Virus genome (UHGV): UHGV-1366976
Source of the DNA: a virus
Direction: 5' to 3' (one strand)
Length of the DNA stretch: 64,000 nucleotides
The notes under the pieces are model-generated. The model had not been told where the DNA came from. It ran no database searches and saw only the letters and a list, made by a program, of their open reading frames with translations. The first letter of the stretch is position 1. Each line of letters begins with the position of its first letter. A program made the translations under genes and the position numbers. Positions 11,901 through 64,000 of this stretch are shown in pieces.

Positions 11901-13057
11901 CTAATCAAGTAACTGGAGAGTTAAGTATTCTTAATGAAGCTGCCTCTAAAAGATTTTTTGACTATAAAGACAGAGCATTTGCTGCAAAAGAAGTGATGAA
12001 GTTAATGCCTGAATATCTAGCTGAAGTGGGATCAGTTACTCCAGATTCTAAATTGTTCTATCTCACTTCATTTTTTGATATGTTAGGAGACTATGATCAA
12101 GAATTAAAAGATCTTAATTCTAATGTAAAGAATAAATTACTTAGAGGACTATCTTTCAATTCTTTAATGCTTCCTATACAATTGGGAGATTTTAGTAATA
12201 AAATGAGTGTTGGAATAGCAATGCTTCATAATACTAAAGTATTAAATTCTGAAGGCAAGAAAGTTTCTTTATATGATCAGTTTGAAGTAAAAAATGGAAT
12301 TCCTGGTATTAAAGAAGGAACTAAAAATCTAGATGGAAGTAATTTTACTAAATCTGATTTAGTAGCTTTTATGAACAGATTAGGAAAACTAAACACTCAG
12401 TTGTTTGGTATGACTGATAAAATAGATAGGGCTCCATTACAATCAAGAAGTATTGGTAGAGCTTTTTCTATCTTTAGATCATTCTTAGGTCCTAACCTTA
12501 ATAGAAGATATTCTATAAATAAATTAGATACTTCTTTAGGCATTTATACTGAAGGATATTATAACACTTTATTAAAGTTTGTATGGTATGATTTAAAGGA
12601 TGCTCATTTTAATATTTTAACTGCTTGGGATAAATTAACTAATGGTCAAAAACAAAATATGCATATTGCTATTACAGAATTAGCAACATTAGGAATAATG
12701 ACTATATTGATTGTGACTATTGGAGCATTAGCTGGAAAAGCTGATGAAGATAATGAAAAAAGACTACAAGCACTTAGACTTATGTTAGCTAGAACTAGAA
12801 CAGAATTAGCTGCTTTATCTCCATTAGGTATATTTAGTGAAACCACTAGGATGTTTCAATCTCCTACAGCTATATTAGGATTAGTTGATTCATTAAGTGA
12901 TGTTTTTAGTGGTGCATGGTTTGAAACTTATGAAAAAGGGGATTATAAAGGATGGAATAAAGGCTTTATTAAAACTTTAAGATTAGTTCCAGGTAGTAGA
13001 TTAATATTTGATTTTGTGACTATTGATGAAAAATTAAAATGGTATGGTCTAGACTAG
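8918..13057 (+). CDS. Large virion-associated protein (1379 aa), unknown function, C-terminal hydrophobic helices
   Basis: Long ORF co-directional with and immediately after the giant gene. C-terminal segment ITELATLGIMTILIVTIGALAG is a predicted TM helix. No recognisable catalytic motif. Confidence 0.5.
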   Translation: MKICPNLNDPQVKEEFETLKRLFGENSAYYLWNKNKGNFLDRTADGDINTTYISNFEKYNDKEYALKTAALELLNSESYNNTDISKAEPVKNTTTLELGKEALMDIVEGYHMNNKGQFKLEVDQAIDLNNTIKAAGLKDVDVVSVGIKYQLYDKSLNKYITAKEIKNNPKYSLSASDIQNSIKNRILDELKKLGVEVQTVDSLKSQYGLDYLAVADITNKAIKFAKNEISLEALGEEGAHFFVEAMNDSPFVNRLMNLIKQNKAYKNILGDEFSEYNLAYKGDEDLLAKEAIGKLLGQYLIDVNTLSYKPAKNLLERLWNALKSIFSSKDNTSLEKLLNNELKEFAHDILTNKAKGLNKTSLLKSSIDKLYSIGNRAKSLEDVMNKVIETEALRLKIYENQLSSISTKEAQRKLVVELNDALEKGTIKERIASYISGASKVMQQLTEQLNKENELLSSNSISKSAHIARRMKSFLVSVQPIVTDMQRYLREDKSDPEFNSKMHSLISEFLVESNAINDELQLKMFNIFAKWIGTQFDKFAEVENPFGEKLTRQQVIDSLTKANKDNNWFNRWISSASDNPDIVINLVATAFKNTEGEKRMKVKDVHYQLINAVKELNDAGIKDFDWIFEKINGEYSQNFNSEWDYSSYEVAKSKLWETLRKKFPENPIEREKVFIANPDLQKEWAKIWSEFNRKYVERVEGWENILYNKEKTLSRGEFLRWKSKNVNEYIDSKGNTIHTPNVYGELAHPKQKNKAFEEIKNNPAKLKFYNTINKIMKESLNLLPADIKGVTPNMAPRIRADFRERVVQEGFIKAFKTKDALSAIQIRADEDEFGYRYEERLQDFEGNTVQFLPIYYTSKIKDATFSTDLIGNVLRFYDMSINYNLKSKMIDILEVGKNILSERLVKIGSNGLESKVTISVLTRLIQRESKVKAENLYKGYKDLIDKGLYGEYQKNEGSFKIPFIKGEFDIAKSMNAVRDAVQYIMLGGSPFVGFANQVTGELSILNEAASKRFFDYKDRAFAAKEVMKLMPEYLAEVGSVTPDSKLFYLTSFFDMLGDYDQELKDLNSNVKNKLLRGLSFNSLMLPIQLGDFSNKMSVGIAMLHNTKVLNSEGKKVSLYDQFEVKNGIPGIKEGTKNLDGSNFTKSDLVAFMNRLGKLNTQLFGMTDKIDRAPLQSRSIGRAFSIFRSFLGPNLNRRYSINKLDTSLGIYTEGYYNTLLKFVWYDLKDAHFNILTAWDKLTNGQKQNMHIAITELATLGIMTILIVTIGALAGKADEDNEKRLQALRLMLARTRTELAALSPLGIFSETTRMFQSPTAILGLVDSLSDVFSGAWFETYEKGDYKGWNKGFIKTLRLVPGSRLIFDFVTIDEKLKWYGLD

Positions 13058-17165: not shown

Positions 17166-19193
17166 TTAATGTTGCCATACTGTTGTTATCTCAGGTTCTG
17201 CAATTACAGGAACTACATCTATAAATACTCTACCTGCTTTTTCCATACATTCTTTTAAAGCTTTTGCACATTTATCTGCTATATCTTTGGGAGTTTCTAA
17301 AAGATATTCATCATGGACAAAGTTACTTATTTTAACTTTATCAAATAAATTTTCTTTTAAAATCCAATCAAAAAACCAAACTCCAGCTAGTTTAGACATA
17401 TCTGAAGCACTACCCTGGCAAGGAAAGTTTAATGCTCTTCTTTCTAAATCTCCTCTAAGATTAAAAAATCTTTTACAAGTAGGCTTATAATATGTCAAAA
17501 AATCTTCTGTTTGATGGAATTTATGTTGTTTGTAATTCTCCCACCATTGTTTATCAATAGTTCTAGAAAGTCTTTCATATTCATCAAATATTTGATAATA
17601 TGATCTTCTTCCAGTAACTTTGTTAAAATAGACATATCCATTTTTGACAACAATAGGTTTGATATAGTCAAAATATTCTTTTAATTTAGGAAAAGCTTTC
17701 ATATAGGCATCATAGACTTCATCTCCTTCTTCTTTAGATAATCCTAAATTCTTAGCAATAGTATCACCAACACCACCAAATAAAATTGCAAATTTAGCAC
17801 CTTTAGCTTTACTTCTAAGATCAGGTCTTTCATGTTTTACTTCTTCTTCTGGAATATCTTTTAATTCCTTAGGAAAACATAATTTTGCAGTAAAACTATG
17901 ACCATCTCTTTTTCTAGTAGTATCATTATAAAAATCTATAAGTGCAGGTTCTTTAGATAATTGAGTGTACATTCTATCTTCTTGTTGACTGTAATCACAA
18001 TCTACTAAGATAGTGTTCTCAAATTGATTAGTAAAACATCCTCTAGTTATTTTATCTGAAGGAATATTTTGAAGATTGATACTATTATCATCATCTTTAT
18101 TATCTCCAGAACCACAAGAAGTTCTACCAGTATTCATAATTTGCCAAAATGTAGCATGAATTCTTCCTGTTTTAGGATTAATAGCATCTAAGAAGTTTTG
18201 TCCATATGTAGTTACCAATTTCTGTGCTTTCTTATAATCAATATACATTTGTATAAGAGGAGACACATGAACTTGTTTAACTATATGCTTAGCTTCTATA
18301 GAATCTTTCATTTTTCCTGTTTTCTTATCTCTGACTTTAGTATCTACACCTAGTTCTTTAAAGATAGGAATAATTTGTTTAGAAGAACTCCAATTTAAAC
18401 TACATCTTTTAGCTGCACTAAAAAGATCTAATTGTTTATTAACATATTTATCACCAAATCTTTCAAATACCCATTTGTTCAGAGCAAATTCCATATCTGA
18501 TAGCTTCTTGGAATCATCTTCCATTTTAGCTAGCCATTTTTCTTTATTAAGATAAATACCACAATATTCAATATATGCTAATACCTTAACAAATTTATTG
18601 TCTAATTTAACAGCACCCCATAAACCATCTTCTTTAATTTTAACCATTTGAGAAGTCATTACAGGAATCAGATATTTAACATCATTGGCACCATATTCAA
18701 TAACTTTATCAGTAAGACCTACTCTATTAATAGTTCCTCTAATAGATTTATTTAATAAGACACCACAATATTTAAGAACTAGAACATCTAAAGATTTTCT
18801 AACATAATTTGGTAATTTAACATCATCAAATCCACAATATAATACACCTTCAGCTAAATATGTGTCAAATATATTTTCTAGAATGATATTATGCTTATAG
18901 AAAAATTGAAGATCAAATTTTGCATTTTGTAGTACCCAAACTACATCTTTTCTTAATAATAATGGTTTTAATTTTTCTAATATATTAGGAGAATACTCAA
19001 TCACAAATTGCTGATCAAAATCTCCAAATTGAATAGATAGTAATTCACAAGAATGTGGATCTAGTCCACTAGTTTCAGTATCTAAGGCAATAAATTTATG
19101 ATTTTTAAAATAAGATATAATATCCTGAACTTCTATTTCCTTCCAAACACTACTTCCAACAACTCTTTTCTGCTCAGAACAAAAATGTATCAT
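17166..19193 (-). CDS. Family A DNA polymerase with N-terminal 3'-5' exonuclease domain
   Basis: Exo motif ALDTETSGLD. Pol motif A DYSQQEDR (cf. DYSQIELR), motif B RSKAKGAKFAILFGG, motif C VHDE. Confidence 0.85.
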   Translation of the reverse strand: MIHFCSEQKRVVGSSVWKEIEVQDIISYFKNHKFIALDTETSGLDPHSCELLSIQFGDFDQQFVIEYSPNILEKLKPLLLRKDVVWVLQNAKFDLQFFYKHNIILENIFDTYLAEGVLYCGFDDVKLPNYVRKSLDVLVLKYCGVLLNKSIRGTINRVGLTDKVIEYGANDVKYLIPVMTSQMVKIKEDGLWGAVKLDNKFVKVLAYIEYCGIYLNKEKWLAKMEDDSKKLSDMEFALNKWVFERFGDKYVNKQLDLFSAAKRCSLNWSSSKQIIPIFKELGVDTKVRDKKTGKMKDSIEAKHIVKQVHVSPLIQMYIDYKKAQKLVTTYGQNFLDAINPKTGRIHATFWQIMNTGRTSCGSGDNKDDDNSINLQNIPSDKITRGCFTNQFENTILVDCDYSQQEDRMYTQLSKEPALIDFYNDTTRKRDGHSFTAKLCFPKELKDIPEEEVKHERPDLRSKAKGAKFAILFGGVGDTIAKNLGLSKEEGDEVYDAYMKAFPKLKEYFDYIKPIVVKNGYVYFNKVTGRRSYYQIFDEYERLSRTIDKQWWENYKQHKFHQTEDFLTYYKPTCKRFFNLRGDLERRALNFPCQGSASDMSKLAGVWFFDWILKENLFDKVKISNFVHDEYLLETPKDIADKCAKALKECMEKAGRVFIDVVPVIAEPEITTVWQH

Positions 19194-20949: not shown

Positions 20950-21087
20950 TAATTTTTTCATCTTAACATTTTTCTAACATTCACACTTATCCTCTCAGAT
21001 TATGTTGTAGTAGTTAAGCTTTAGGAGGTTCCAGCAATTTAGAAGGTTATTCAATATACATTACTGTATAAGGCTGCCTATTTGTTA

Positions 21088-23066
21088 ACAGTAACTCCTT
21101 TAAGTCCCATTTTATAAGCATTAAGATAAATTTGTTTTACAACATCTTTACTTACATCTGAGGCTAAATTAATAGTTGTGCTAATTGAACTAGTAGTATA
21201 TTTTTGGATAATAGCTTGAATCTCTAATCTTGTTTGCCAAGGAATATCTGCTGCTTCATTATTATAATAAGGAGAAGATTTAAAGAGAGTATTAGTCATA
21301 CTCTTAGATAGTTCATTAAACTTCTTTCCAGTTGTTATTTCACAGAATTTCTGGAATCCTTTATGAGCAACTGTAAATACTTTAAATTTCTCTTTAGTAT
21401 TAGGATCTATAAAATCATATTTTTCATCAAAAGCATTTACTTTAACTCTTCTATCATACAATGTTTTAAATACTGGTTCTATACCACTAGTAGTTTGAGT
21501 TAGTAATGATCCTGATCCAACTGGAGCAACAGTACTTAATGAAACATTTCTTCTTCCTAGTTCTTTCATTCTGGAAACTAGTTTAGGATAATTATTTATT
21601 AAAAATTCATACCATTGATTACTAGGTTTATCTTCAGGATATTCTAAATTATAATCATAGTCTAAGAAAGTTCCTCTAAGATAAGCTAAATCTATACTAG
21701 CTTCTAATTCAGCTTTAAACTTAGTTTCCATAATAGATTCTACTAGATAATGAGAATCTTTAAATGATAGATTCATTGCAGCAATAGTATCTCCTAAAGC
21801 TGTGAATCCACATCCAATTCTTCTACCTTTTCTAGCTGCATCAAGAACTCTTTTCCAAAGTTCTATTTCACTTTTAGCATCTGAATGATTGATTATATTT
21901 TCAATATTTTTACATTCCAAATCAATAATATCATCCAGAAAGATTACATGTTCATATGCTATTTTTCTAAATAGTTCATAATCAAATGAGGCTTCACTAG
22001 TAAAAGGATTTTTTACAAATGATAAAAGATTAATATGAGATAATCTACATGAATCAGCATCACCTAATGGCTGTTCTCCACATGGATTAGTTGTAACAGC
22101 TTTTAATCTAGGATATACAGAAGCAGGATCATAATTAATAATATTATCCCATAATAGTATTCCAGGCTCAGCTGTTTTCCAAGCACAATCAATAATTAAA
22201 TCTAACAATTCATTTGCTTTTACCTTTTTAAAATAAGATTTTCCTGCATAATATAACTTATTATATTCAAAATCTTTAGAATTCCAATTAATAAATTCTC
22301 CTAATCTTGAATTAATAGGCCATTTTAGTAACCAATCTTCATTTTTTTGAGCAGCTGTTACTAAATTTCTACATAATTTCACAGAAATATTAGCTCCTGT
22401 AACTTTAGTTAAATCTTGTTTTATTGTAACAAATTCAGATATATCTGGATGAATATCTGACATACATAACATTAATGCTCCTCTTCTTCCATTTTGACCT
22501 ATAGTTTTAACATCTGTAGAATATAATTCCATAAAACTAGGAGCTCCTGTACTTGTTTTAGAAGCATTATTTACCATAGCTCCATTAGGTCTTAAATGAT
22601 CAAGATGTGTTCCAACACCACCCCTTCTCATAAATAAATAAGCCATCTCTTTGCCTTTATCCATAATGCTTTCCATTTTGTCTTTTGGTCCTTCAATACC
22701 AAAACAATTAGCTAGAGAAACATTATTAGCTTTACCTAGAGATGCCATAATAGATCCTCCTGGTACAATATATTTAAAATTTTTAAATAATTGAAACCAT
22801 TTATCTCTGATTTGATAATCATTAGACTCACATAGATCTCTTACATAATTTCTACCTAGATCAGAAAGTTTATCTATATTTATTTTTTTATTTACTAATT
22901 CTTTTTGATACTTTCTTTCTATAAGAGCAATATTATAAGCTAACCTCTGATGCATATTATCAGGTGTTTTTTCATCTTCACCTGCATATTTAGATAAAAA
23001 TACTTTAGCTGCTAATTCATCTCCTTCAAAATATTTCACACTACACTCTTCAGCTGTTTTCTTCAT
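21088..23066 (-). CDS. nrdJ: Class II ribonucleotide reductase NrdJ, exon 1
   Basis: Active-site loop TNPCGEQPLG (class II NPCGE signature), large alpha/beta-barrel-sized ORF. The ORF stops abruptly inside the conserved KGVTVYRDGSR motif. Confidence 0.7.
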
Positions 23067-52726: not shown

Positions 52727-53302
52727 ATGAAATTATTTAAACTAGAAAATTGGAAAGTGGAAATAGCTCCAGAAGCATTAACTATAGTAGATTTTAAGGA
52801 GCTAGTTAAGAGAGATAAATCTAGAACAAAAGAGAATGCTATAAATGAATTGTCATTTATTTTTTTCTTTTGTGATAGTAGATCAGATTATCTTTATATA
52901 GATGATCCTACAGAAAGAATGGAAGCCATTAAAACAGATTTAAATTTACCTAAAAAATGGAAGCCAGATGAACTTGTAACTAAAGCTATGAACACTTATC
53001 TTAAATTGAGTGTGACTATTTTTTCTACAGCATTAGATGATGTTAGGGTCGCTATTAGAAAGATTACTCAGAATTTAAGAGAAGCTGATTATAAGAATAT
53101 GGATGCTAATGAAATTAATAAATCTACAAGTTCTATTAAACAAGTAGGACCTTTATTAAAAGAGTTTAAAGAACTAGAAAGAGAAGTATTAGCTGAAATT
53201 GAAGAGGACTCTATTACATCTAAAGATAGAACTATTCTAGACAGTGGGTTTAAAGCATTTAATGATATAGAAACTTTAAAAGGAATACAAGATGGTAACT
53301 AA
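52727..53302 (+). CDS. Hypothetical protein immediately upstream of terminase (candidate small terminase subunit by position)
   Basis: The six-frame track starts at a TTG (52718) inside the terminator T-run. The first ATG (52727, MKLFKLENWK...) is the more plausible start. Position upstream of TerL is the only functional evidence. Confidence 0.35.
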   Translation: MKLFKLENWKVEIAPEALTIVDFKELVKRDKSRTKENAINELSFIFFFCDSRSDYLYIDDPTERMEAIKTDLNLPKKWKPDELVTKAMNTYLKLSVTIFSTALDDVRVAIRKITQNLREADYKNMDANEINKSTSSIKQVGPLLKEFKELEREVLAEIEEDSITSKDRTILDSGFKAFNDIETLKGIQDGN

Positions 53303-56300
53303 TGCTGTAAATACAGAATTAACTCCTGAGTTTCTAGAAACATTAGCTAAAGAAGAGAGAACAGAACTATTAGACTATTTAAATAATTATCCATTTATAA
53401 GATGGATGATATCTCCAGATAGACCTTATGCTAAAGATCTAGAAAGAGATTCAGAAGGTAAAATTATAGTTAATGTGGTTAAACCTCACATATTAGAAAA
53501 TATGGATTATTTTAGAAAACCTGCATTAGCTTTTAAAAAACATGGTAAATATACTAATTTAAGACCTAATGGTAATCCAAATAGTCCATATATGAAATGG
53601 TTAAGAAAAGAAGTTCTTAAATGTTGGTATGGATGTAAGAGACCATCTGATGGTGAATGGATTACTGGTTATCATTATTTTTATTTAAATTATTCTCCAA
53701 TAGAAAGAGCTACAGCTAATATTAAAGATACTAATGCTGTAAATAGGGTTGTTGATTTTCCTGATATCTATGATGGAGATTATATATTTTTTCATTATAT
53801 AAATCAAGCTAGATATGGAGGAATGTATAATGAATATAAAGGAGGTCAACATTCAGCTTTAATAGCAGCTAGAGGAAAAGGAAAAATGCTTCCTAACTCT
53901 ACTATTGTATATACTCCAAATGGATATAAAGTGTGGAAGGATATACACCCAGGAGATTATTTATATGGAGATAATGGTAAGCCAACAAAAGTCTTGGAAG
54001 AATTTAATCATAAATCAAAGCCAATATATAAATTAACTTTAAAAGATGGAAGGACAGCATATGCTGGTTTAGAACATCTTTGGACTATAAAGTATGGAAA
54101 TAAGTTAATAACAGTAGATACACAGTGGATTATAGAAAATGGTTTTGGTAAAAGAACAATTAAAGGAAAATGTCATAAACCTATTGAATGTAAAGCTTTT
54201 TTGCCTATAAATAAAGCAATAGAAATTCCTTATAAAGAAGTTTCTATAGATCCTTATCTATTAGGTTTAATTTTGGGGGATGGATGTTTAGGATATGCTA
54301 ATAGTAAAGGAGTATTATTTTCTTCTACAGTTAAAGATCAGAAAACTTATGAGAAATTATTAAATACTAAAATTAGAGAATATAAAAACAGTAATTGTTT
54401 TATAGAAAGTGCAAATATTAAAAATAAATTGATTGAATTAGGTTTATATAAAACAAAATCTGATAATAAATTTATTCCAGATATCTATAAATATAATTCT
54501 AAAGAAGTTAGATTAGAAATCTTAAAAGGATTAATGGATACTGATGGTTCTGCTTTTAGTAGTGGTATAGAATATATCTCTAAATCTAAACAATTAGCAG
54601 AAGATGTACTTTGGATTGGAAGATCTTTAGGAATAAGAGGAACACTTAATTCTAAGTTTGTAAAATATAAAGATGAAATTAAAGAATATTTTAGGGTTAG
54701 ATTTATAACTACTGAAACTATCTTTAAACTTCCTAGAAAAATAGAAAAAATAAAACAAAGAAATTCTAATTATTTAAAGAATCAAGAAAACTATGTAGCA
54801 ATTACTTCTATAGAATATTCTTATAATGAAGATGCTAAATGTGTAATAGTGGACAATGATTCTCATTTATTTTTAATGAATGACTTTATTGTTACTCATA
54901 ATTCATTTAAAGTAGCATCTATGGCTACTAGAAATTTTATCTTAGGAGAAAATAAAGAAGTTTGTGAAAAAGTAAAATCTGTTGTTGTAGCTAGTAATAC
55001 AGAATATTTAAGAAAAGATGGTACTTTAAATAAGATATTAGCTATGACAGATTTCTTGGCTTTAAACACACAATATCCATCTAGTAGATTAAAATCTTCT
55101 AATCAAGAAATGCATTGGATTATGGGATTTAAAGATACTAGAAATAAAGATGTAGCTTTAGGAACTAGAAATGAAATTATAGGATTATCACTAAATAATG
55201 ATTCTGATAAAGCCAGAGGTAAAAGATCTCATTTAATGATATGGGAAGAATTTGGTATGTTTCCTGGTTTTATAGATGCATGGAACACTAGTAGACCTAA
55301 TGTAGAAGAAGGTGGATATTCTTTTGGACAAGCAATTGCTTTAGGAACAGGAGGCTGTGTTTGTGCAGGTTCTAAAATATATACTAGCTCTGGAGATATA
55401 AAAAATATTGAAGATCTTAAAAAAGAAGATGGAATTATAGGATATGATACAAAATTAAAAAAATATTCTAAAGAAACTGTTTCTTATATACAACCTTTAC
55501 AAAAAAAGGAATGTGTAGAGATAACTACTTCTTTTAATAAAAAATTAAGATGTAGTATAGATCATCCTATTTTTGTTAAAAATAAGTTTATAGAAGCTGG
55601 AAATCTAAAAATTGGAGACAGAATTAAAATAGTTGAAGAAATTCCATTATTTGGAACATACAGTCCTAAATATCCAAGAGTTATAGGTTGGGTAATAGGA
55701 GATGGTTCTTATGGGAATAATCAATCTACTAGACTGTCTAATTGTGAGCCTGAAATTCTAGATTTTATAAAAAATAATTTTGAATATAACATTCAAAGAG
55801 AGTACATTACAAAATTAGGAAAAACATTTCAAGAAATTGCAATTAAAGGATTTAATAAATATCTAAGAGAAGAAGGAATTTATGGTCAAACTAAATTAAA
55901 TAAAACTTTTCCAAATAAGATTGGTCAATATTCAAAAGAAGCTTTGTCTGAACTTATTGGAGGTTTTTTTGATACAGATGGATATGTAAATTTAAGAAAA
56001 GCAGACAATAAAGATTTGGCAGAAATATCAATTTCTTCTGCTTCTAAAGAATTACTATCTTTTTTAGGGTTATTGCTTATAAAATTTGGAATACATGGTA
56101 GAATTAGGGAAAGACTGCCTAGAAAAAATAATCCTAAAGACAAACATTCTTGGTTTGAATATACTATATCTGACAGTATTAGTTTATTAAATTTTTGTCA
56201 CAATATAAAACTTTATCCTAAAATAAAACAGGAAAGATTAAATAAAATTAAAGAATTATTTTCCACAAAAAAACCTACTTCTAAAAGAGAAGAAAAAATC

Positions 56301-57623
56301 ATTGATATAAAAAATATAGGTTTACAAACTATTTATAATTTAACTGCAGATAATACTCATACTTATATAGCTAATGGTATAGTAACTCATAATACTGAAG
56401 GATCAGATTTTAGTGGTGCTTTAGAAATGATTTATAATCCCTTAGGATATAATGTTTATGGAGTTCCCAATATGTTTGATAAAGGAACATCTGGAGGTTC
56501 TAAATCTATTCTCTTTATAGGAGAATATATGAATAGAAAAGGATGTTATGATAAAAATGGAAATTCAGATGTTATTAAAGCTGTTTTAGAAGAAGTCAAA
56601 GAAAGAGTATTTATCAAATATAATTCTACAGATCCTTCTACTATTGCACAAAGAATAGCTGAACATCCTATGTCTATTCAAGAAGCTGTAATGAGAAGAG
56701 ATGGTACATTATTTCCTGTAGCTGATTTAACAGACCATCTTAATTATATAGAATCAAATAAAATAGAATGGCATAGAGGTCATTTAGTTGGAGAACTATA
56801 TCAAGATCCTGAAGGAAATATTTCTTTTAGACCAACAGATGATGATCCTATTAGAGATTTTCCCTTAAAAGATAATAGACATAAAGGAGCATTAGAAATA
56901 TATGAATTGCCTAAAGAAGTTAATGGAAAGGTGCCTAGTTATAGGTATGTTGGTGGTATTGACCCTATTGATGATGATCATAGTACAACTGTATCTCTTC
57001 CCAGTATATTTATCCTTGACATGTTCACTGATAGGATTGTAGCTGAATATACAGGTAGACCTGATTTTGCAGATGATTTTTATGAAATATGTAGAAGATT
57101 AGCTATTTTCTATAATGCTTCATTAAATTATGAGAATGATAAAAAAGGTTTATTTACATATTTTTCAAATCATCATTGCACTCATTTACTATGTGATACT
57201 CCAGATATTTTAAGAGATGTAGAATTGGTAAAATCTTCTATGTATGGTAATAAATCTAAAGGTACTAATTCAGGAAAACAAGTAAATGCTTATGCTAGAA
57301 GACTTATTAGAGATTGGCTATTAATGCCTGTAAAACAAACTAAAGTTGAATTAGATGAACATGGTGATGAGGTAGAGAAAATTACCACTGTTAAAAATCT
57401 ACAAAGATTAAGAGGAATAGCTTTAATAAAAGAACTTATAATGTGGAATCCTGATATAAATGCAGATAGAGTTTCTGCTTTAGGTATGTTGATGATTATT
57501 AGAGAGAATAATATGAAATATCTTCCAGGAGAAGGAACATCTATTGGTAAAAAAACTAGAAAGAATTATCTAGGTAATGATCCTTTCTTTACTAGTAATT
57601 TTGCTAATAATTCTTTTTGGTAA
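53292..57623 (+). CDS. terL: Terminase large subunit precursor containing two inteins
   Basis: Extein motifs: P-loop ARGKGK(S), Walker B HLMIWEEFG, nuclease-domain VGGIDPIDDDHS. Two in-frame LAGLIDADG-containing insertions end in HN|S and HN|T. Confidence 0.75.
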   Translation: MVTNAVNTELTPEFLETLAKEERTELLDYLNNYPFIRWMISPDRPYAKDLERDSEGKIIVNVVKPHILENMDYFRKPALAFKKHGKYTNLRPNGNPNSPYMKWLRKEVLKCWYGCKRPSDGEWITGYHYFYLNYSPIERATANIKDTNAVNRVVDFPDIYDGDYIFFHYINQARYGGMYNEYKGGQHSALIAARGKGKMLPNSTIVYTPNGYKVWKDIHPGDYLYGDNGKPTKVLEEFNHKSKPIYKLTLKDGRTAYAGLEHLWTIKYGNKLITVDTQWIIENGFGKRTIKGKCHKPIECKAFLPINKAIEIPYKEVSIDPYLLGLILGDGCLGYANSKGVLFSSTVKDQKTYEKLLNTKIREYKNSNCFIESANIKNKLIELGLYKTKSDNKFIPDIYKYNSKEVRLEILKGLMDTDGSAFSSGIEYISKSKQLAEDVLWIGRSLGIRGTLNSKFVKYKDEIKEYFRVRFITTETIFKLPRKIEKIKQRNSNYLKNQENYVAITSIEYSYNEDAKCVIVDNDSHLFLMNDFIVTHNSFKVASMATRNFILGENKEVCEKVKSVVVASNTEYLRKDGTLNKILAMTDFLALNTQYPSSRLKSSNQEMHWIMGFKDTRNKDVALGTRNEIIGLSLNNDSDKARGKRSHLMIWEEFGMFPGFIDAWNTSRPNVEEGGYSFGQAIALGTGGCVCAGSKIYTSSGDIKNIEDLKKEDGIIGYDTKLKKYSKETVSYIQPLQKKECVEITTSFNKKLRCSIDHPIFVKNKFIEAGNLKIGDRIKIVEEIPLFGTYSPKYPRVIGWVIGDGSYGNNQSTRLSNCEPEILDFIKNNFEYNIQREYITKLGKTFQEIAIKGFNKYLREEGIYGQTKLNKTFPNKIGQYSKEALSELIGGFFDTDGYVNLRKADNKDLAEISISSASKELLSFLGLLLIKFGIHGRIRERLPRKNNPKDKHSWFEYTISDSISLLNFCHNIKLYPKIKQERLNKIKELFSTKKPTSKREEKIIDIKNIGLQTIYNLTADNTHTYIANGIVTHNTEGSDFSGALEMIYNPLGYNVYGVPNMFDKGTSGGSKSILFIGEYMNRKGCYDKNGNSDVIKAVLEEVKERVFIKYNSTDPSTIAQRIAEHPMSIQEAVMRRDGTLFPVADLTDHLNYIESNKIEWHRGHLVGELYQDPEGNISFRPTDDDPIRDFPLKDNRHKGALEIYELPKEVNGKVPSYRYVGGIDPIDDDHSTTVSLPSIFILDMFTDRIVAEYTGRPDFADDFYEICRRLAIFYNASLNYENDKKGLFTYFSNHHCTHLLCDTPDILRDVELVKSSMYGNKSKGTNSGKQVNAYARRLIRDWLLMPVKQTKVELDEHGDEVEKITTVKNLQRLRGIALIKELIMWNPDINADRVSALGMLMIIRENNMKYLPGEGTSIGKKTRKNYLGNDPFFTSNFANNSFW
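53898..54902 (+). mobile_element. Intein 1 in TerL (LAGLIDADG homing-endonuclease intein; N-terminal boundary +/- 4 codons)
   Basis: Inserted in the P-loop (ARGKGKMLPN|S...). Block B-like GLEHLW. LAGLIDADG motifs LLGLILGDGCLG and ILKGLMDTDGSA. C-terminal IVTHN|SFKV (His-Asn + Ser). Confidence 0.6.
55356..56393 (+). mobile_element. Intein 2 in TerL (346 aa, LAGLIDADG homing-endonuclease intein)
   Basis: N-terminal block A CVCAGSKI (C-V-x-x-G-S-x-I), block B SIDHP. LAGLIDADG motifs VIGWVIGDGSYG and LIGGFFDTDGYV. C-terminal IVTHN|TEGS. Confidence 0.7.
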
Positions 57624-57715: not shown

Positions 57716-60151
57716 ATGGAATTAACTATTAGTGGATTTCCTAACCAGAAATTACCTTTTTCTAAGAAAGGTAAAGAATGGAGGAAAAGAGTTGTTGATT
57801 GGGCTGATAAAAGATCCTACTTCTTTGACTCTGTTGTTAGAAAAGCTTTTATTAATAAAAAAATCAATTATGATTTAATTAATGGAAAGCTTCATCTAGA
57901 TGATTTAAAGTTAATTCTAAATCCTGACAATATCAAAGCCTCTTATATTCCTAGTAATATTCAACACTATCCTATTATGAATAGTAAATTGAATGTATTA
58001 GCTGGAGAAGAAAAAGAAAGAAGATATGAATTCAAAGTAATAATTACTAATCCTGATGCTATTTCAGAACTTGAAATTAAAAAAAGACAAGAGCTTTCAG
58101 AAGCTTTATCTTCCCTCCTAGAAGAAGCATCACAAGATGAATCTATCTTGGATAAAGAATTAAAATCTCTTTCAGATTCTTTTAGATATGATTGGTCAGA
58201 TATAAGAGAGATAAGAGCAAATCAATTATTAAATCATTATTATAAAGAATTAAAACTAGATGTTAAGTTTAATGATGGTTTTATGGATGCAATGATTGTT
58301 GGTGAAGAATTATACCAATGTGATATTGTATCAGGAGAACCTATAGTAGAAAGACTTAATCCTAGAAAAGTTCATGTATTTAAAAATGGATATTCTAATA
58401 AAATAGAAGATGCAGATTTAATAATTTTAGATGACTTTTGGGCTCCTGGAAAAATATTAGATTATTATTATGATGATCTTTCTGATAATGATGTTAAAAA
58501 GTTAGAAGAATATTCTCCTTTTGCTGATTCATCTGAAGGATTAAATCTATATGATGATACTAAACTATTTGTTCCAAGATTCTCTTATTATGATGATAAT
58601 AATATTGATTTAGATTTTGCTTTTCAATCTGGAACAACTACACCTTCTTCTAACTATTATGATAATTTAGGTAATATTAGAGTATTAAGAATATTCTGGA
58701 AAAGTAAAAGGCTTGTTTTAAAAGTTAAGAAATATGACTTAGAAACAGGAGAGCCTTACTATGATTATTATCCTGAAGATTATAAAGTAAATGAAGCTCT
58801 TGGTGAAGAAGCTGAAAAACAATGGATTAATGAAGCATGGGAAGGAACTAAAATAGGTAGAGATATTTATATTAATATCAGACCTAGAAAGATCCAATAC
58901 AATAGAATGTCTAATCCATCCAGATGCCATTTTGGTATTATTGGTTCTGTCTATAATCTTAATGAATCTAGAGTCTATTCATTAGTAGATATGATGAAAC
59001 CATTTCAATACATGTATGATGCAGTACATGATAGATTAAATAAAGCTATTGCTAGAAACATGGGTAAGATTGTTAAATTAGATCTAGCTCTTATTCCTGA
59101 TGATTGGGAGATAGACAAATGGATGCATTTTGCTTATGTTAATGGTATTGCTGTAGTAGACTCTTTTAAAGAAGGTAATGTAGGTGCTGCTACTGGTAAA
59201 TTAGCAGGCTCTCTTAATAATAATAGTTCTGGAGTTATGAATGCTGAAACAGGTAATTATATACAACAGCATATAGCTTTATTAGAATTTATTAAACAAG
59301 AGATGTCTAAGATAGTAGGTATTACAGATCAAAGAGAAGGAGCAGTTCAAGCTTCAGAAACTGTTGGTGGTGTACAAACATCTGTTAGACAAAGTACTTA
59401 TATTACAGAAAGACTATTCTTAATTCATGATGATGTTAAGACAAGAGTACTAGAAGCTTTATTAGAAACTGCTAAAATAGCAATGAGAGGTTCTAGTAAA
59501 AAATATAATTTTATTTTAGATGACTTTTCTAGAGAACTTGTAACTATTAATGGAGATGAGTTTGCTGAGTGTGATTATGGTTTAGTAGTTGATAATTCTA
59601 TGAATACTTTAGAATTAACACAGAAATTAGATACATTAGCACAAGCAGCTTTACAAAATCAAGCTTTATCTTTCTCATCTATTATTAAGATTTATAATAG
59701 TAAATCTTTAGCTCAAGTACAAAGAACTATTGAAATAGATGAAGCAGATATTCAAGAAAGACAACAACAGCAACAACAAGCTGAACAAGAATTAGCTCAA
59801 TCTCAATTAGAACAACAAGCTCAAATAGAACAGGCTAAATTAAATCTTGAAAAATATAAAATTGATCAAGATAATCAAACTAAAATTCAAGTGGCTACTA
59901 TATCAGCTTTAGGATATTCTGAAGATAAAGATGTTAATGATAATAATATTCCTGATGTAGTAGAAATGAATAAATTAGCATTAGAAGAGATGAATGCTAT
60001 GGAAACTAACTCTTTAAAAAGAGAAGAACTTAGAATTAAAGAGAAGGAAGTTGAAATTAAAGCTCAGACTGAAAAATACAAAGCAGATAAGAGCTTAGAA
60101 GTTGCTAGAGAAAATAAAAATAAATATGATACTAAAACCAAGAAGACATGA
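57716..60151 (+). CDS. Portal protein (by synteny and size)
   Basis: 811-aa ORF directly after TerL. Gln-rich coiled-coil C-terminus (QERQQQQQQAEQELAQSQLEQQAQIEQ). No motif-level proof possible by eye. Confidence 0.5.
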   Translation: MELTISGFPNQKLPFSKKGKEWRKRVVDWADKRSYFFDSVVRKAFINKKINYDLINGKLHLDDLKLILNPDNIKASYIPSNIQHYPIMNSKLNVLAGEEKERRYEFKVIITNPDAISELEIKKRQELSEALSSLLEEASQDESILDKELKSLSDSFRYDWSDIREIRANQLLNHYYKELKLDVKFNDGFMDAMIVGEELYQCDIVSGEPIVERLNPRKVHVFKNGYSNKIEDADLIILDDFWAPGKILDYYYDDLSDNDVKKLEEYSPFADSSEGLNLYDDTKLFVPRFSYYDDNNIDLDFAFQSGTTTPSSNYYDNLGNIRVLRIFWKSKRLVLKVKKYDLETGEPYYDYYPEDYKVNEALGEEAEKQWINEAWEGTKIGRDIYINIRPRKIQYNRMSNPSRCHFGIIGSVYNLNESRVYSLVDMMKPFQYMYDAVHDRLNKAIARNMGKIVKLDLALIPDDWEIDKWMHFAYVNGIAVVDSFKEGNVGAATGKLAGSLNNNSSGVMNAETGNYIQQHIALLEFIKQEMSKIVGITDQREGAVQASETVGGVQTSVRQSTYITERLFLIHDDVKTRVLEALLETAKIAMRGSSKKYNFILDDFSRELVTINGDEFAECDYGLVVDNSMNTLELTQKLDTLAQAALQNQALSFSSIIKIYNSKSLAQVQRTIEIDEADIQERQQQQQQAEQELAQSQLEQQAQIEQAKLNLEKYKIDQDNQTKIQVATISALGYSEDKDVNDNNIPDVVEMNKLALEEMNAMETNSLKREELRIKEKEVEIKAQTEKYKADKSLEVARENKNKYDTKTKKT

Positions 60152-60503: not shown

Positions 60504-61628
60504 ATGAATGATGTAGATATTTTAGGTCTTAATGATTTTATGGAAATTCTTCCAGATGAAATTGAAGAGACTGAAGAGAATAAAGAAGAAATTGAAACTT
60601 CAGAAGAAGAAATTGAAGATGAAAATAAAAATAATACTAGTGAGGATGATAATCCAGGGGGAGTAGCTAGTGAGGATCAAGAAACAGAGGAGGAAGAAGA
60701 ACAAACTGTTGAGGAAACAACTTCTTCTCCAAATCTCTACAATACCCTAGCAAATGCTCTCAAACAGGAATCTGTCCTCCCTGATCTTGATCTAGAGAAT
60801 AAAGAATTAAAAAGTTGGGATGATTTCAAAGATGTATTTAAAGAATACATTGAAAAAGAAGTTGAATCCAAACTAGATGAAACTGATAAGTTTATCAAGA
60901 AAGCTATTGAGAATGGAGCAGATACAAAAGAAATTTTGCAATATAAGAATAGCTTAGATTACTTAGAAAGTTTAACAGAAGATCAATTAAAAGAGGAAGG
61001 ACAAGATGGTGAAGCATTAAGAGCTAATATTATTTATCAAGATTATCTTAATAGAGGAATATCTGAAGAAAAAGCTAAAGCTAAAGTTAAAAAGATATTT
61101 GATAGAGGAGATGATATTGATGAAGTATTTGATGCTCTAGAATCTAATAAAGAATTTTTTAATTCTAAGATAGAAGAAATTAATGCAGAAGCTGAAGAGA
61201 AAGCTAAAAAATTAAAGAAAGAACAAGAAGATTTTTATAATGACTTATATGATTCTATTTCTAAAGATAGAGAACCTATTAAAGGAATTAAAATCACAGA
61301 AGAAACATCTAAGAAAATCTTAAACACTCTCAAAAAACCTATTGCTAAAGATGATAATGGAAGACCATTAAATGCTGTTCAAAAATATGCAAAAGAAAAT
61401 CCAAAAGATTTTCAAAAAGTTATAGGAACTCTATTTGTATTAACAGATGGTTTTAAAAGCTTTGATAAGATTATGAAAGCAACTAAAAAAGTGGCTAAAA
61501 GAAAAGCTGTTGATGATTTAGAAAGAGTACTTGTTTCTCAACCTATTGGCTTATCAGACAATCCTCTACCTTTTAATTCAAAATCTTCTGGTATCTATGG
61601 AAGAGATTGGGATATTGTCCTTGATTAA
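60504..61628 (+). CDS. Acidic coiled-coil protein, putative scaffolding protein
   Basis: Extremely acidic N-terminal 100 aa (EIEETEENKEEIETSEEEIEDE...). Helical K/E-rich body. Sits between the portal and the capsid-like gene. Confidence 0.35.
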   Translation: MNDVDILGLNDFMEILPDEIEETEENKEEIETSEEEIEDENKNNTSEDDNPGGVASEDQETEEEEEQTVEETTSSPNLYNTLANALKQESVLPDLDLENKELKSWDDFKDVFKEYIEKEVESKLDETDKFIKKAIENGADTKEILQYKNSLDYLESLTEDQLKEEGQDGEALRANIIYQDYLNRGISEEKAKAKVKKIFDRGDDIDEVFDALESNKEFFNSKIEEINAEAEEKAKKLKKEQEDFYNDLYDSISKDREPIKGIKITEETSKKILNTLKKPIAKDDNGRPLNAVQKYAKENPKDFQKVIGTLFVLTDGFKSFDKIMKATKKVAKRKAVDDLERVLVSQPIGLSDNPLPFNSKSSGIYGRDWDIVLD

Positions 61629-61654
61629 ATATTATAATAATTAATTGAATAAAA

Positions 61655-62245
61655 ATGATTGGAAAGTATGTAATGAGAGAAGCCAAGACCTTGAATGGTT
61701 TGGTTTCAGATAATGCTTTGGCTTCTATTTTTCAGAGTGCCCCTCAAAAAGCTTCAAATCTTATGATCAAATTACTCTATGCAAATAGAGGTATGTCTCT
61801 TGAAAGAAATTTGATGAGATTCCCTGTTAAATATTTTGAAACAGATGATGATTATACTTGGGAACTTATTGGTTCTTCTAGGAGAAATATTGCTTTGGTT
61901 GAAGCTAGATATAATGGTACTGTTGTTGAAGCTGATGACTTTAATGTAGGTATTGGTGGATCTACTATCGAACTAGTATTCCCTGAAAACTATTTCTTTG
62001 ATGGTTACATTATTGTGGGTGAAAAGAATGAGGAATATCCTTTTAGAATTCTTGAAGAGCCTAGAGTAGAAGGTACATATTATGTTTATAAAGTAGAACT
62101 TACAGGTAAGAATAAACAGAATGGTTGTCCTGGTGAAGAGCTAGTTGGAGGTAAAAGATTCTCTGATGAATATGCTCCTGTAGAAAGAGAGATGAGTAGA
62201 AAAGTTGGTGATAGACTAAAAATATTTTATGTCACCCTATTCCAG
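61655..62245 (+). CDS. Putative major capsid protein, exon 1 (true 3' end of exon 1 lies at or before 62245)
   Basis: Position after TerL-portal-scaffold. The ORF terminates and is followed by a HEG and a structured region, after which a long ORF in another frame resumes. Confidence 0.45.
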
Positions 62246-63379
62246 TAATGGATAGTTAAAAAATGGGCAAATTAGGTGGAACTACCTATTAAGGTACAAT
62301 ACCTAGCTAATGCATTCCTAACTAGAATGCACAGTGTAGAGAGTAGGAAATGAGGATAAAATAATTATCTAATGAAAGGATATATTTATAAAATTACCAA
62401 TAAGGTAAATGGGAAGTCCTATATTGGACAAACTAGATATACTGTAGAATTTAGATGGAAACAACATCAATTTAAAAAAGATAATTGTCATTTTCATAAT
62501 GCAATTAAAAAATATGGTACAGATAATTTTACAGTAGAAATATTAGAAGAATGTGAATTTAAAGACTTAGATAGTAGAGAAATGTTTTATATTGCTAAAT
62601 ATGATACATTTAACAATGGATATAATTCTACTATAGGAGGAGATGGTAGAAGAAAGATAATTTCTGATAATCAATATGATGAAATAAAAGAGCTTTATTT
62701 ATCAGGATTTAGTGGATATAAAATTTCTAAATTATATGATGTAGATAAAGCTACTATTTTAAAGATTTTACATTCTATGAATGTTAAGATAAGAAATAAT
62801 AATCTTAACATAAATCATCAAGAATTTTTAGAACTTAAAAGGGATTATGAAATTGGATATTCTTTAAGAGAATTATCTAAAAGATATGATTGTAGTCCAA
62901 CAGGTTTGAAAGAATTCTTAGAAAAAAGAGGTGTTGATCTTAGAATTAGATATTCTATTCTGAAAGACCAAGAAGCACAAAATAATTTAATAAATGATTA
63001 TTTAGATGGAAAATTAAAATTGTCTGAAATAGAATCTAAATATCATTGTAGTTATGCAACTCTTTTAAAAATCCTTTCATTGCATGGTATAAATAAAGGA
63101 AAGAAACATTTTAAAATGACTTCAGAAGAATGTTTAAATGCTATTAAAATGTTTAATGATGGAAAATCTGTTAAAGAGATTTCTAAACATTTTGAAGTAG
63201 ATAAAGGAACTATATATTCTTTATTTAAAAGATACCATGTTAATTATTTGACAGTATAATTTTCCCAAGAGTGTCCACTTCCTAATAGGTAATGCTAAGG
63301 AAGAAAATGTACTCCAAGTTGCCTCTAAAAGAGGTTTCTCAGATAAAGAGCTGAGAAAGTAAAAACTAGGTAAGATATG
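62246..63379 (+). mobile_element. Group I intron (approximate limits) carrying a GIY-YIG homing endonuclease
   Basis: A non-coding 123-nt 5' segment, the HEG, and a 110-130-nt 3' segment with no ORF lie between the two capsid ORF halves. The downstream frame is open only from 63370. The architecture mirrors the T4 td/I-TevI intron. Confidence 0.55.
62372..63259 (+). CDS. GIY-YIG homing endonuclease (I-TevI-like) with C-terminal HTH/NUMOD-like repeats
   Basis: N-terminus MKGYIYKITNKVNGKSYIGQTRYTVEFRWKQHQF parallels I-TevI GIYQIKNTLNNKVYVGSAKDFEKRWKRHF. Four repeats of a ~20-aa helix-turn-helix unit (KISKLYDVDKATILKIL, LRELSKRYDCSPTGLKEFL, KLSEIESKYHCSYATLLKIL, VKEISKHFEVDKGTIYSLF). Confidence 0.8.
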   Translation: MKGYIYKITNKVNGKSYIGQTRYTVEFRWKQHQFKKDNCHFHNAIKKYGTDNFTVEILEECEFKDLDSREMFYIAKYDTFNNGYNSTIGGDGRRKIISDNQYDEIKELYLSGFSGYKISKLYDVDKATILKILHSMNVKIRNNNLNINHQEFLELKRDYEIGYSLRELSKRYDCSPTGLKEFLEKRGVDLRIRYSILKDQEAQNNLINDYLDGKLKLSEIESKYHCSYATLLKILSLHGINKGKKHFKMTSEECLNAIKMFNDGKSVKEISKHFEVDKGTIYSLFKRYHVNYLTV

Positions 63380-64000
63380 CAACTCCATTCTCTATGAGAA
63401 ATGAATTCTCTACTATTAGAATTTCTACTAAAGTAGCTGGGAATAAGATGAATAGAAAACTTGAAACTGGTATTCCTGTAATGACTAAGGAAGGTAAACT
63501 TCAAGTTAATAAAATGTGGATTCATCAAGTAGACTGGACATTAGAGGAACAATTTGCTAAAGATAAATCTCATGTATTGATGTATGGAGTCTCTAATAGA
63601 GATGAACATGGTGAATACTATGACTTTGGTAAATCTGGTAATGTTATCAAGATGGGTGCAGGTATTAGGGAACAAATGAGTTATGGTAATGTTGTTTACT
63701 ATAATAAATTTGATCTTAAACTATTAGAGAAAGCTCTAGTAGATCTGTCTGTATCTAAACTTGATATGAAAGATAGGAAATTTATTTTAAGAACTGGTGA
63801 ATATGGAGCAATTCAATTCAATAAAGCTGTTCTAGATGTAGTATCTGGATGGTCAGCATTCTCATATTTGAGAGGTTCTGATCAACCTGGAATTATTTCT
63901 AAGGCTAATTCTAATTTGCATCAGACTGCTTTGACTGCTGGATTCCAGTTTGTTGGTTATAGAGCTCCTAATAATGTTGAAGTGTTCTTGGAGGTTGATC
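63370..64000 (+). CDS. Putative major capsid protein, exon 2 (partial; continues beyond window; start +/- 25 nt)
   Basis: Frame open from 63370 to the window end with no stop (..VRYATPFSMRNEFSTIRISTKVAGNKMNRKLETGIPVMTKEG...). Not reported in the ORF track because it is unterminated. Confidence 0.45.

Follow-up and report, generated by a model that had tools for sequence, protein, structure and literature searches.

We analysed a stretch of 64,000 nucleotides (nt) from the virus genome UHGV-1366976, referred to below as the window; positions are counted from its first base. The major capsid gene of this crAss-like phage, located at the end of the window, is interrupted by an insert that is very probably a spliced, mobile group I intron carrying a homing endonuclease gene. 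An earlier note on the same DNA, made from the letters and their open reading frames (ORFs), had proposed a capsid gene split by an intron of this type.

Capsid gene and its two exons

The main features of the region are as follows.

61655–62212, plus strand: major capsid protein gene, exon 1 (codons 1–186, terminus ...SRKVGD); matches positions 4–190 of Pfam PF23898 (E-value 8e-59)
62213–63369, plus strand: predicted group I intron, 1157 nt, IA-like; starts after the final U of the exon and ends with G63369; boundaries taken from intron-less alleles
62372–63259, plus strand: predicted homing endonuclease gene, 295 amino acids (aa); GIY-YIG domain at residues 1–86, four helix-turn-helix (HTH) repeats at about 90–295
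63370–64000, plus strand: major capsid protein gene, exon 2 (from codon 187, VRYATPFSMRNE..., incomplete at the window end); matches positions 191–391 of PF23898 (E 9e-74)

A crAss-type major capsid gene is divided between 61655–62212 and 63370–64000. Its two halves score 199.7 and 249 bits, respectively, with the Crass_capsid family PF23898 (cut-off 27) and abut in the profile. Since they match adjoining stretches of PF23898, the split is not due to chance. The PHROG assignment of the gene is major head protein. The earlier note had recommended comparing the joined exons with HK97-fold capsid proteins. The joined protein was aligned with gp32 of crAss001 (PDB 7QOF) in a single stretch covering residues 5–401 (E 2e-133). 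In tblastn it also gave one piece, with 57% identity, against the capsid genes of crAss001 and relatives, which are uninterrupted. Megablast of 61000–64000 against GenBank phages produced zero matches, so that collection holds no annotated near-relative.

The ORF noticed earlier in the capsid position is present (61655–62248, 197 aa). Its final 11 codons and stop codon (62246–62248) are intron sequence, and the true end of exon 1 is 62212. The long open frame starting from 63370, also described in the earlier note, lies directly 3' of an in-frame TAG (63367–63369), differs in frame from exon 1 and continues past the window end. Homologues read SRKVGDVRF/YTSPxSMRNE at the junction. In the window, SRKVGD closes exon 1 and VRYATPFSMRNE opens exon 2, and KVGD followed by VRY matches the uninterrupted homologues. 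The break is situated within the most conserved capsid motif, and removal of the insert restores this motif exactly.

Insert boundaries and intron-less alleles

IMG/VR was searched with the joined capsid protein, which yielded ten contigs of the window's phage lineage (L003–L012). Four of them (L003–L006) have no insertion whatever between the sequences matching 61655–64000. L007 is without the window's insert, but has a different one at another capsid site (site 2, see below). These five contigs align to the window up to 62212 and from 63370 onward with adjacent subject coordinates (3558 and 3559 for L003–L006). Because the intron-less alleles join 62212 directly to 63370, the insert is exactly 62213–63369, 1157 nt; thus the comparison with intron-less relatives, suggested as a check in the earlier note, fixed the boundaries. 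The nucleotide identity of L003–L006 to the window on the exon 1 side is 81–97% (96–97% for L003–L005). The insert is carried by L008–L012. The last base of exon 1 is U, the last base of the insert is G, and in silico removal of 62213–63369 yields the sequence of the natural intron-less alleles. Between the exons, the ORF 62372–63259 is preceded by 123 nt without an ORF (62249–62371), the length given for this leader in the earlier note. It is followed by a non-coding tail, for which about 120 nt had been stated and 110 nt were measured (63260–63369).

An explanation of the insert as a group II intron, an intein or an assembly artefact has next to no probability in our estimate. Five independent contigs, derived from four samples, share the insert, contrary to what an artefact would produce. 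The neighbouring terminase gene does contain an intein; nothing specific otherwise favors this explanation, and an intein in the capsid gene is excluded, as the insert has stop codons on its flanks and the reading frame differs between its two sides. Against a group II intron, Pfam matches of the insert's ORF are only of the GIY-YIG and HTH types, with no reverse-transcriptase family, and no group II RNA family was reported in Rfam scans at E ≤ 1. All three candidates were rejected as contradicted by the sequence.

Intron sites in the capsid gene

Three sites in the capsid gene are occupied in different combinations in the window's lineage. Site 1 is that of the window's intron. Site 2, equivalent to the junction between 63663 and 63664 and empty in the window, is occupied in L007 (3854–4737) and L012 (5011–5894) by a paralogous group I intron of 884 nt that encodes a GIY-YIG protein of its own; the gene for this protein has about 67% nucleotide similarity to the endonuclease gene of the window. 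Site 3, after ...RGYQFG and approximately 155 nt beyond the window's end, holds an ORF-less intron (L008:3785–4079) that is recognised by the Rfam group I model RF00028 with 64.2 bits (E 2e-15). Site 3 is filled in L008, L012 and, with an extra insert of about 500 nt, L003; it is empty in L004–L007 and L009–L011. The site-3 intron is an ordinary Rfam-recognised one and was not assigned to the family of the window's intron.

Further members of that family were found in more distant phages. L027 (IMGVR_UViG_3300010167_000860), with a capsid gene more distant from that of the window, has family introns at site 1 (with an ORF) and site 2 (without an ORF). Removal of about 250 nt at the latter restores GKSGNVIQMGAG followed by LREQ, and an ORF-less family member thus resides in an essential gene. 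Within essential genes, ORF-less members would be tolerated only when spliced. In L015 (IMGVR_UViG_3300001528_000107), a family copy occupies a further site, between ...EDWFA and DGEV..., in another capsid-like gene. Rfam-recognised, more canonical group I introns were observed at L015:4980–5229, L021:3918–4132 and 3585–3807, and L030:3728–4152. These contigs also carry family members, and the phages are rich in introns.

Structure of the intron RNA

Sequence comparison and folding support a group I core in the insert, with U·G in P1, a terminal G, P10, helices P2–P9.1 and a P3/P7 pseudoknot; the architecture appears to be IA-like. The group I assignment made in the earlier note is thereby upheld. 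The proposed elements are listed below; covariation refers to 11 family members, and MFE stands for minimum free energy.

62207–62212, plus strand: 5'-exon strand of P1, GGUGAU; pairs with GUCACC 62231–62236, U62212·G62231 being at the splice site
62222–62236, plus strand: internal guide sequence; AUAUUUUAU (P10 strand, 62222–62230) and GUCACC (P1 strand, 62231–62236), contiguous
62237–62255, plus strand: P2 hairpin (CUAUUCCA ... UGGAUAG), from the MFE fold of the ORF-less construct; L027 has CUAUGCU/AGCAUAG there
62264–62269, plus strand: P3 5' strand UGGGCA; pairs with 63272–63277; MFE fold, compensatory changes in 6 of 6 pairs
62273–62305, plus strand: P4 (UAGGUG 62273–62278 / UACCUA 62300–62305) enclosing P5 (UACCU 62283–62287 / AGGUA 62292–62296); weak P4/P5 alignment with Rfam Intron_gpI
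62306–62335, plus strand: P6 (GCU/AGU) and P6a (UGCAUUC 62311–62317 / GAAUGCA 62325–62331); folds, a hairpin of differing sequence in every member
62339–62345, plus strand: P7 5' strand G(A)GAGUA with bulged A62340, R element; pairs with UACUCC 63310–63315 (pseudoknot)
62346–62350, plus strand: P7.1 5' strand GGAAA; pairs with UUUCC 63261–63265, the stem enclosing the endonuclease gene; compensatory changes in 3 of 5 pairs
63261–63277, plus strand: P7.1 3' strand UUUCC (63261–63265), junction CAAGAG (63266–63271), P3 3' strand UGUCCA (63272–63277); folds, covariation
63278–63303, plus strand: P8 hairpin (CUUCCU ... AGGAAG); folds, a hairpin of differing sequence in each relative
63304–63315, plus strand: J8/7 AAAAUG and P7 3' strand UACUCC (S element); covariation
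63321–63369, plus strand: P9 (63321–63335), P9.1 (63336–63357) and tail AGUAAAAACUAG with terminal G63369; folds

The MFE fold of the ORF-less construct yields P1, P2, P3, P4–P6, P8, P9 and P9.1. P10 is formed by AUAUUUUAU with the first 9 nt of exon 2, GUAAGAUAU (63370–63378). At site 1 of L027, P1 is GGAGAU/GUCUCC and P10 is GUAAGAUU/AAUCUUAU, both helices being kept via compensatory changes. In the site-2 introns, P1 is GCUGGU/GCCAGC in one copy, that of L007/L012 (P10 AUUAGAG/CUCUAAU), and GCGGGU/GCCCGC in the other, and the P10 pairing co-varies too. The L015 copy, where no convincing P1 was seen by eye, was left out of the P1/P10 argument.

P7 is formed, with one bulged base, by the R-like element GUAGAGAGUAGG and the S-like element AAAAUGUACUCC, and makes a pseudoknot with P3. 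Its outer pair is G-C in four members and A-U in seven. The bulged A62340 is flanked by the G-C pairs G62339-C63315 and G62341-C63314, which, judged by sequence alone, fits the usual layout of a guanosine-binding site. One extra stem, the co-varying P7.1 (GGAAA/UUUCC), is located between the P7 5' and P3 3' strands; ORF-less relatives have a short hairpin there, e.g. GGAAC-UGAAUAAAUAUAAU-GUUCC, and a second extra stem (P7.2) is not evident in them. The P9.1 loop is AGAUAAAG (63343–63350). Together with the first base of the 3' strand it reads AGAUAAAGC, inside the motif GAUAAAGAGC (63342–63351, closing G-C pair included) that is common across the intron family.

Intron family and covariation

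The intron family, which includes several ORF-less members, was obtained by searching viral contigs for the conserved 3' motif; by a rough estimate, chance alone could give a similar number of matches to the pattern. Both CCCAAGAG and AAAAUGUACUC belonged to the search pattern, and hence their presence in the recovered members is by construction. L014, L032 and L034 have no R element and were discarded as chance matches. L016, L017 and L018 are family members that were left out of the counts given an insertion or a missing element elsewhere. In L016 and L018, no P4 5' strand occurs at 130 nt or less from the R element, and sequence resembling a coding region extends up to the P4 3' strand; an ORF may be inserted in the P5 loop of these two introns instead of in P7.1.

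For the counts, helix strands were taken at fixed places relative to invariant junctions. In P3, P4, P7 and P7.1 taken together, 98% of cells pair, and 13 of the 23 pairs have changed on both sides (3 of 6 in P4), a result reached by 0 of 500 shuffles. When the partners were slid by 1–3 columns, pairing fell to 30–57%. P5, P6, P8, P9 and P9.1 recur as hairpins in most members, their sequences varying; folding of isolated segments gave no P5 hairpin in 3 of 12. A MAFFT alignment of ORF-deleted cores aligned the junctions, placed several helix strands off by 1–3 columns and was not used for pair counts.

These data bear on another explanation, namely that a free-standing endonuclease cassette splits the capsid gene without splicing and the capsid protein is made in two pieces, as in split genes of some T4-like phages. 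Exon 1 does run into a stop codon of its own (62246–62248), exon 2 has an in-frame ATG at 63394, and no match of the insert reaches the Rfam threshold. However, about 270 nt of non-coding flanks are conserved with their helices kept by compensatory changes, for which an unfolded cassette would have no reason, and the guide sequence co-varies with the exon ends. The position of the break, within a motif that excision restores exactly, also disagrees with a cassette, as do the ORF-less family members splitting the same gene and the second, Rfam-recognised intron (64.2 bits) in the capsid gene of a 98% relative. We consider the cassette very improbable and the spliced intron the better explanation.

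The family may represent an uncurated IA-like group I subfamily, characterized by a swapped P7 (GAGUA/UACUC), by GAUAAAGAGC, which almost every member has at the P9.1 loop, and by a P7.1 loop (UGAAUAAAUAUAAU) serving as the docking place of endonuclease genes. If so, the subfamily would be common among gut phages, and in crAss-like capsid genes it would have settled at no fewer than two separate sites (sites 1 and 2). This proposal is tentative, and we rate it slightly below an even chance.

Endonuclease gene

The ORF 62372–63259, recognised as GIY-YIG in the earlier note, probably encodes a homing endonuclease with an I-TevI-like catalytic domain and a different binding module; its cleavage activity is predicted. 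It matches the Pfam GIY-YIG family PF01541 with 36.7 bits (cut-off 22.6) and a PHROG homing endonuclease with 1.6e-30. Its only solved relatives are structures of the I-TevI catalytic domain (1MK0/1LN0; E 4e-6, 30 bits, 86 residues). "Nearly superimposable", as the N-terminus had been called, is too strong a wording for such a match. Residues Y6, Y17, R28, E70 and N85 align with Y6, Y17, R27, E75 and N90 of I-TevI. The remaining part of the protein, residues 90–295, consists of four HTH-type repeats of about 50 aa each, matching HTH_7, HTH_23 and similar Pfam models. The HTH part of the earlier description (four HTH/NUMOD-like repeats) is therefore retained and the NUMOD part dropped, no NUMOD family being among the Pfam matches. 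The PDB match stops at residue 86, and an I-TevI-like DNA-binding part was not recovered. The DNA-binding domain of I-TevI comprises a zinc finger, a NUMOD3 helix and one HTH, as opposed to the four HTH repeats here.

The ORF is full-length in all six copies (the window and five other contigs), with no indels and with the catalytic residues conserved. It occupies the P7.1 loop, between the P7 5' and P3 3' strands, and its stop codon is inside the conserved loop motif UAUAAU. A hairpin, GGAUAA-aau-UUAUCU, is located at 62356–62370 and ends one base 5' of the start codon. This hairpin could limit translation of the endonuclease, as described for I-TevI.

Mobility of the intron

Presence/absence polymorphism, discordant levels of identity and exon changes clustered upstream of the splice site point to a mobile intron. 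The flanking exons of intron-polymorphic genomes are 96–97% identical in the closest alleles and 81–93% identical in the diverged L006 background. In the comparison of L009/L011 with the window, identity equals 76.8% for the upstream gene, 86.9% for exon 1, 98.1% and 99.1% for the two intron parts, and 98.5% for the endonuclease gene. Recent lateral transfer is required, because the intron is 98–99% identical while exon 1 is only 87% identical.

Six positions of exon 1 distinguish L009 (with the intron) from its intron-less counterpart L006. Four of them fall in the 18 nt next to the 5' splice site, which under an even spread of differences has a probability of about 1.5e-5. L009 has the window's base at all four, and P1 depends on one of these bases. 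Downstream of the intron, L009 retains its own background base, unlike that of the window, as early as +12. The co-converted exon stretch thus measures at least 18 nt and less than 58 nt upstream, and less than 12 nt downstream. Upstream co-conversion would be consistent with an enzyme whose cleavage site lies in exon 1, as is the case for I-TevI.

The same pattern might be explained by an intron that is real and spliced but no longer mobile, with an inactive or retargeted endonuclease, old gains, vertical descent and occasional precise loss. We regard this as improbable, though it is the strongest of the alternatives considered. The exon of the intron-less L003, L004 and L007 is identical to that of the window for 240 nt upstream, which is as compatible with precise loss as with a naive target, and the activity of the endonuclease is a prediction. 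On the other hand, the intactness of the ORF and of its catalytic residues in six copies, the 98–99% identity of the intron across backgrounds with 87% identical exon 1, and the clustering of the L009/L006 changes at the 5' splice site all speak against lost mobility.

In the proposed mechanism, the capsid gene would be transcribed through the intron and the RNA would fold into a group I core. Through its guide sequence 62222–62236, the intron would bind exon 1 at its 3' end, forming P1 with U·G at U62212, and exon 2 at its 5' end, forming P10. Free guanosine would attack after U62212, and the freed exon 1 would then attack after G63369. Ligation would give ...GGU GAU joined to GUA AGA..., with the expected spliced junction ...AAAGTTGGTGAT/GTAAGATATGCAAC... 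(slash at the junction), and would restore the capsid motif, SRKVGD continued by VRYATPFSMRNE. Capsid alleles lacking the intron would be cleaved by the endonuclease close to the point of insertion, probably within exon 1. In a mixed infection, repair from an intron-bearing genome would copy the intron together with a short upstream stretch of the exon.

Evidence against a spliced, mobile intron

Several points weigh against this explanation. Splicing was deduced from DNA sequence rather than from RNA, and the cleavage site and activity of the endonuclease are predictions. The in-frame ATG at 63394 lies eight codons into exon 2, and a separate exon 2 fragment may be translated from it. The strands used for covariation were extracted by hand around conserved anchors with the structure in mind, which makes the alignment lean to the proposed structure. 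Finally, Rfam was run on 61000–64000, on both non-coding flanks singly, on the whole window and on ORF-less relatives. The 5' part of the intron reached 12.2 bits (E 0.7) with RF00028, short of the gathering score of 50, there was no match to the whole intron, and the ORF-less relatives were also missed, not reaching E 0.1. Hence the group I covariance model, one of the checks named in the earlier note, did not detect the intron.

The weak RF00028 alignment of the 5' part covers P3-P4-P5-P6-J6/7 in the correct order. P7 of the family is GAGUA/UACUC versus the consensus GACUA/UAGUC, and this pseudoknot swap is scored by the model as plain sequence. As a control we used a T4-type td intron with I-TevI (L035, MG781191.1 140344–143016), which RF00028 likewise did not report at E ≤ 1. 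Because this control was also missed, the Rfam miss was treated as uninformative. The control shows that RF00028 is insensitive to ORF-bearing phage introns of the td type.

Other features of the window

The final 6 kb of the window constitute the head-gene block of a crAss-like phage: a portal gene, a 374-aa ORF and the split capsid gene.

57716–60151: portal gene (PHROG portal, E 9e-145)

The portal and capsid proteins are nearest to those of Steigviridae (55–58% aa identity), which we take to be the Beta group of crAss-like phages. The terminase large-subunit ORF (53292–57623, plus strand) encodes 1443 aa, about twice the usual length. An intein is located at about residues 700–1035 (Intein_splicing, PT-HINT, LAGLIDADG_3), and the extra length suggests that there may be a second insertion near residues 180–540. 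Two giant ORFs, 3–8870 and 8918–13057, presumably resemble crAss-type RNA polymerase genes. The minus strand encodes a family A DNA polymerase (17166–19193) and a ribonucleotide reductase (21078–23066). GC content of the window (1–64000) is 26.8%; over the same range ARAGORN found no transfer RNA genes and no Rfam family reached the gathering score.

Comparison with known introns

Comparison with the td intron of phage T4, whose architecture the earlier note had considered to be the same, showed both common and distinct features. Each is a phage group I intron with a GIY-YIG endonuclease gene, I-TevI in the case of td, and the catalytic domain of I-TevI is the best solved match of the window's enzyme. 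Both have an extra stem between P7 and P3, which for the window's intron suggests type IA. The R element is AACGACUA in td, AGAGAGUA in the window and AACGAGUA in the relatives; P7 of td, AACGACUA/AUAGUCU, corresponds to P7 of the window. The 3' tail of td, ending at the splice site with AACAUAAUG, is similar to AGUAAAAACUAG of the window. The placement of the ORF is not shared: in td it lies upstream of the P7 5' strand, presumably in the P6 region, whereas in the window it lies in the P7.1 loop. The introns also differ in P7 (GAGUA/UACUC in the window versus GACUA/UAGUC), in the extra hairpins (one evident in the window, P7.1; P7.1 plus P7.2 in td) and in the host gene (capsid versus nucleotide metabolism).

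The gene orf142 of Staphylococcus phage Twort reportedly contains three group I introns. Similarly, several independent group I introns are found here in one essential gene, with three capsid sites. The phage, the gene and the host phylum are different from those of Twort, and occupancy here varies between near-identical metagenome genomes.

Capsid-gene introns of group I have already been published for crAss-like phages. In the Delta and Zeta groups of these phages, core genes, the capsid gene among them, were reported to contain group I introns; the introns were recognised via their endonuclease domains, and one Zeta-group capsid gene was in five pieces (Yutin et al. 2021, Nat Commun 12:1044, PMC7886860). 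The phage order, the host gene and the type of element (a group I intron with an endonuclease ORF) are the same as here, but those introns belong to the Delta and Zeta groups, while the phage of the window is nearest to Steigviridae. As capsid-gene introns in crAss-like phages are reported there, the window's intron is a further case of a known type.

New here are the exact splice sites, the covariation-supported RNA structure, the position of the ORF, the three insertion sites, the homing signatures and the blindness of Rfam to the family. The understanding of group I introns or of homing is unchanged by these findings. In genome annotation, the capsid gene would appear as two or three unrelated ORFs and a "hypothetical endonuclease"; the splice sites permit reconstruction of the protein. 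Surveys that depend solely on Rfam would undercount phage introns, since the model misses both this family and T4 td. If the family is indeed an uncurated subfamily missed by Rfam, annotation would regularly mistake such capsid genes for broken or split ones. For uncultured gut phages, the window and its relatives provide a clean natural example of intron homing, in which three sites of one essential gene vary independently in occupancy and a co-conversion stretch is visible.

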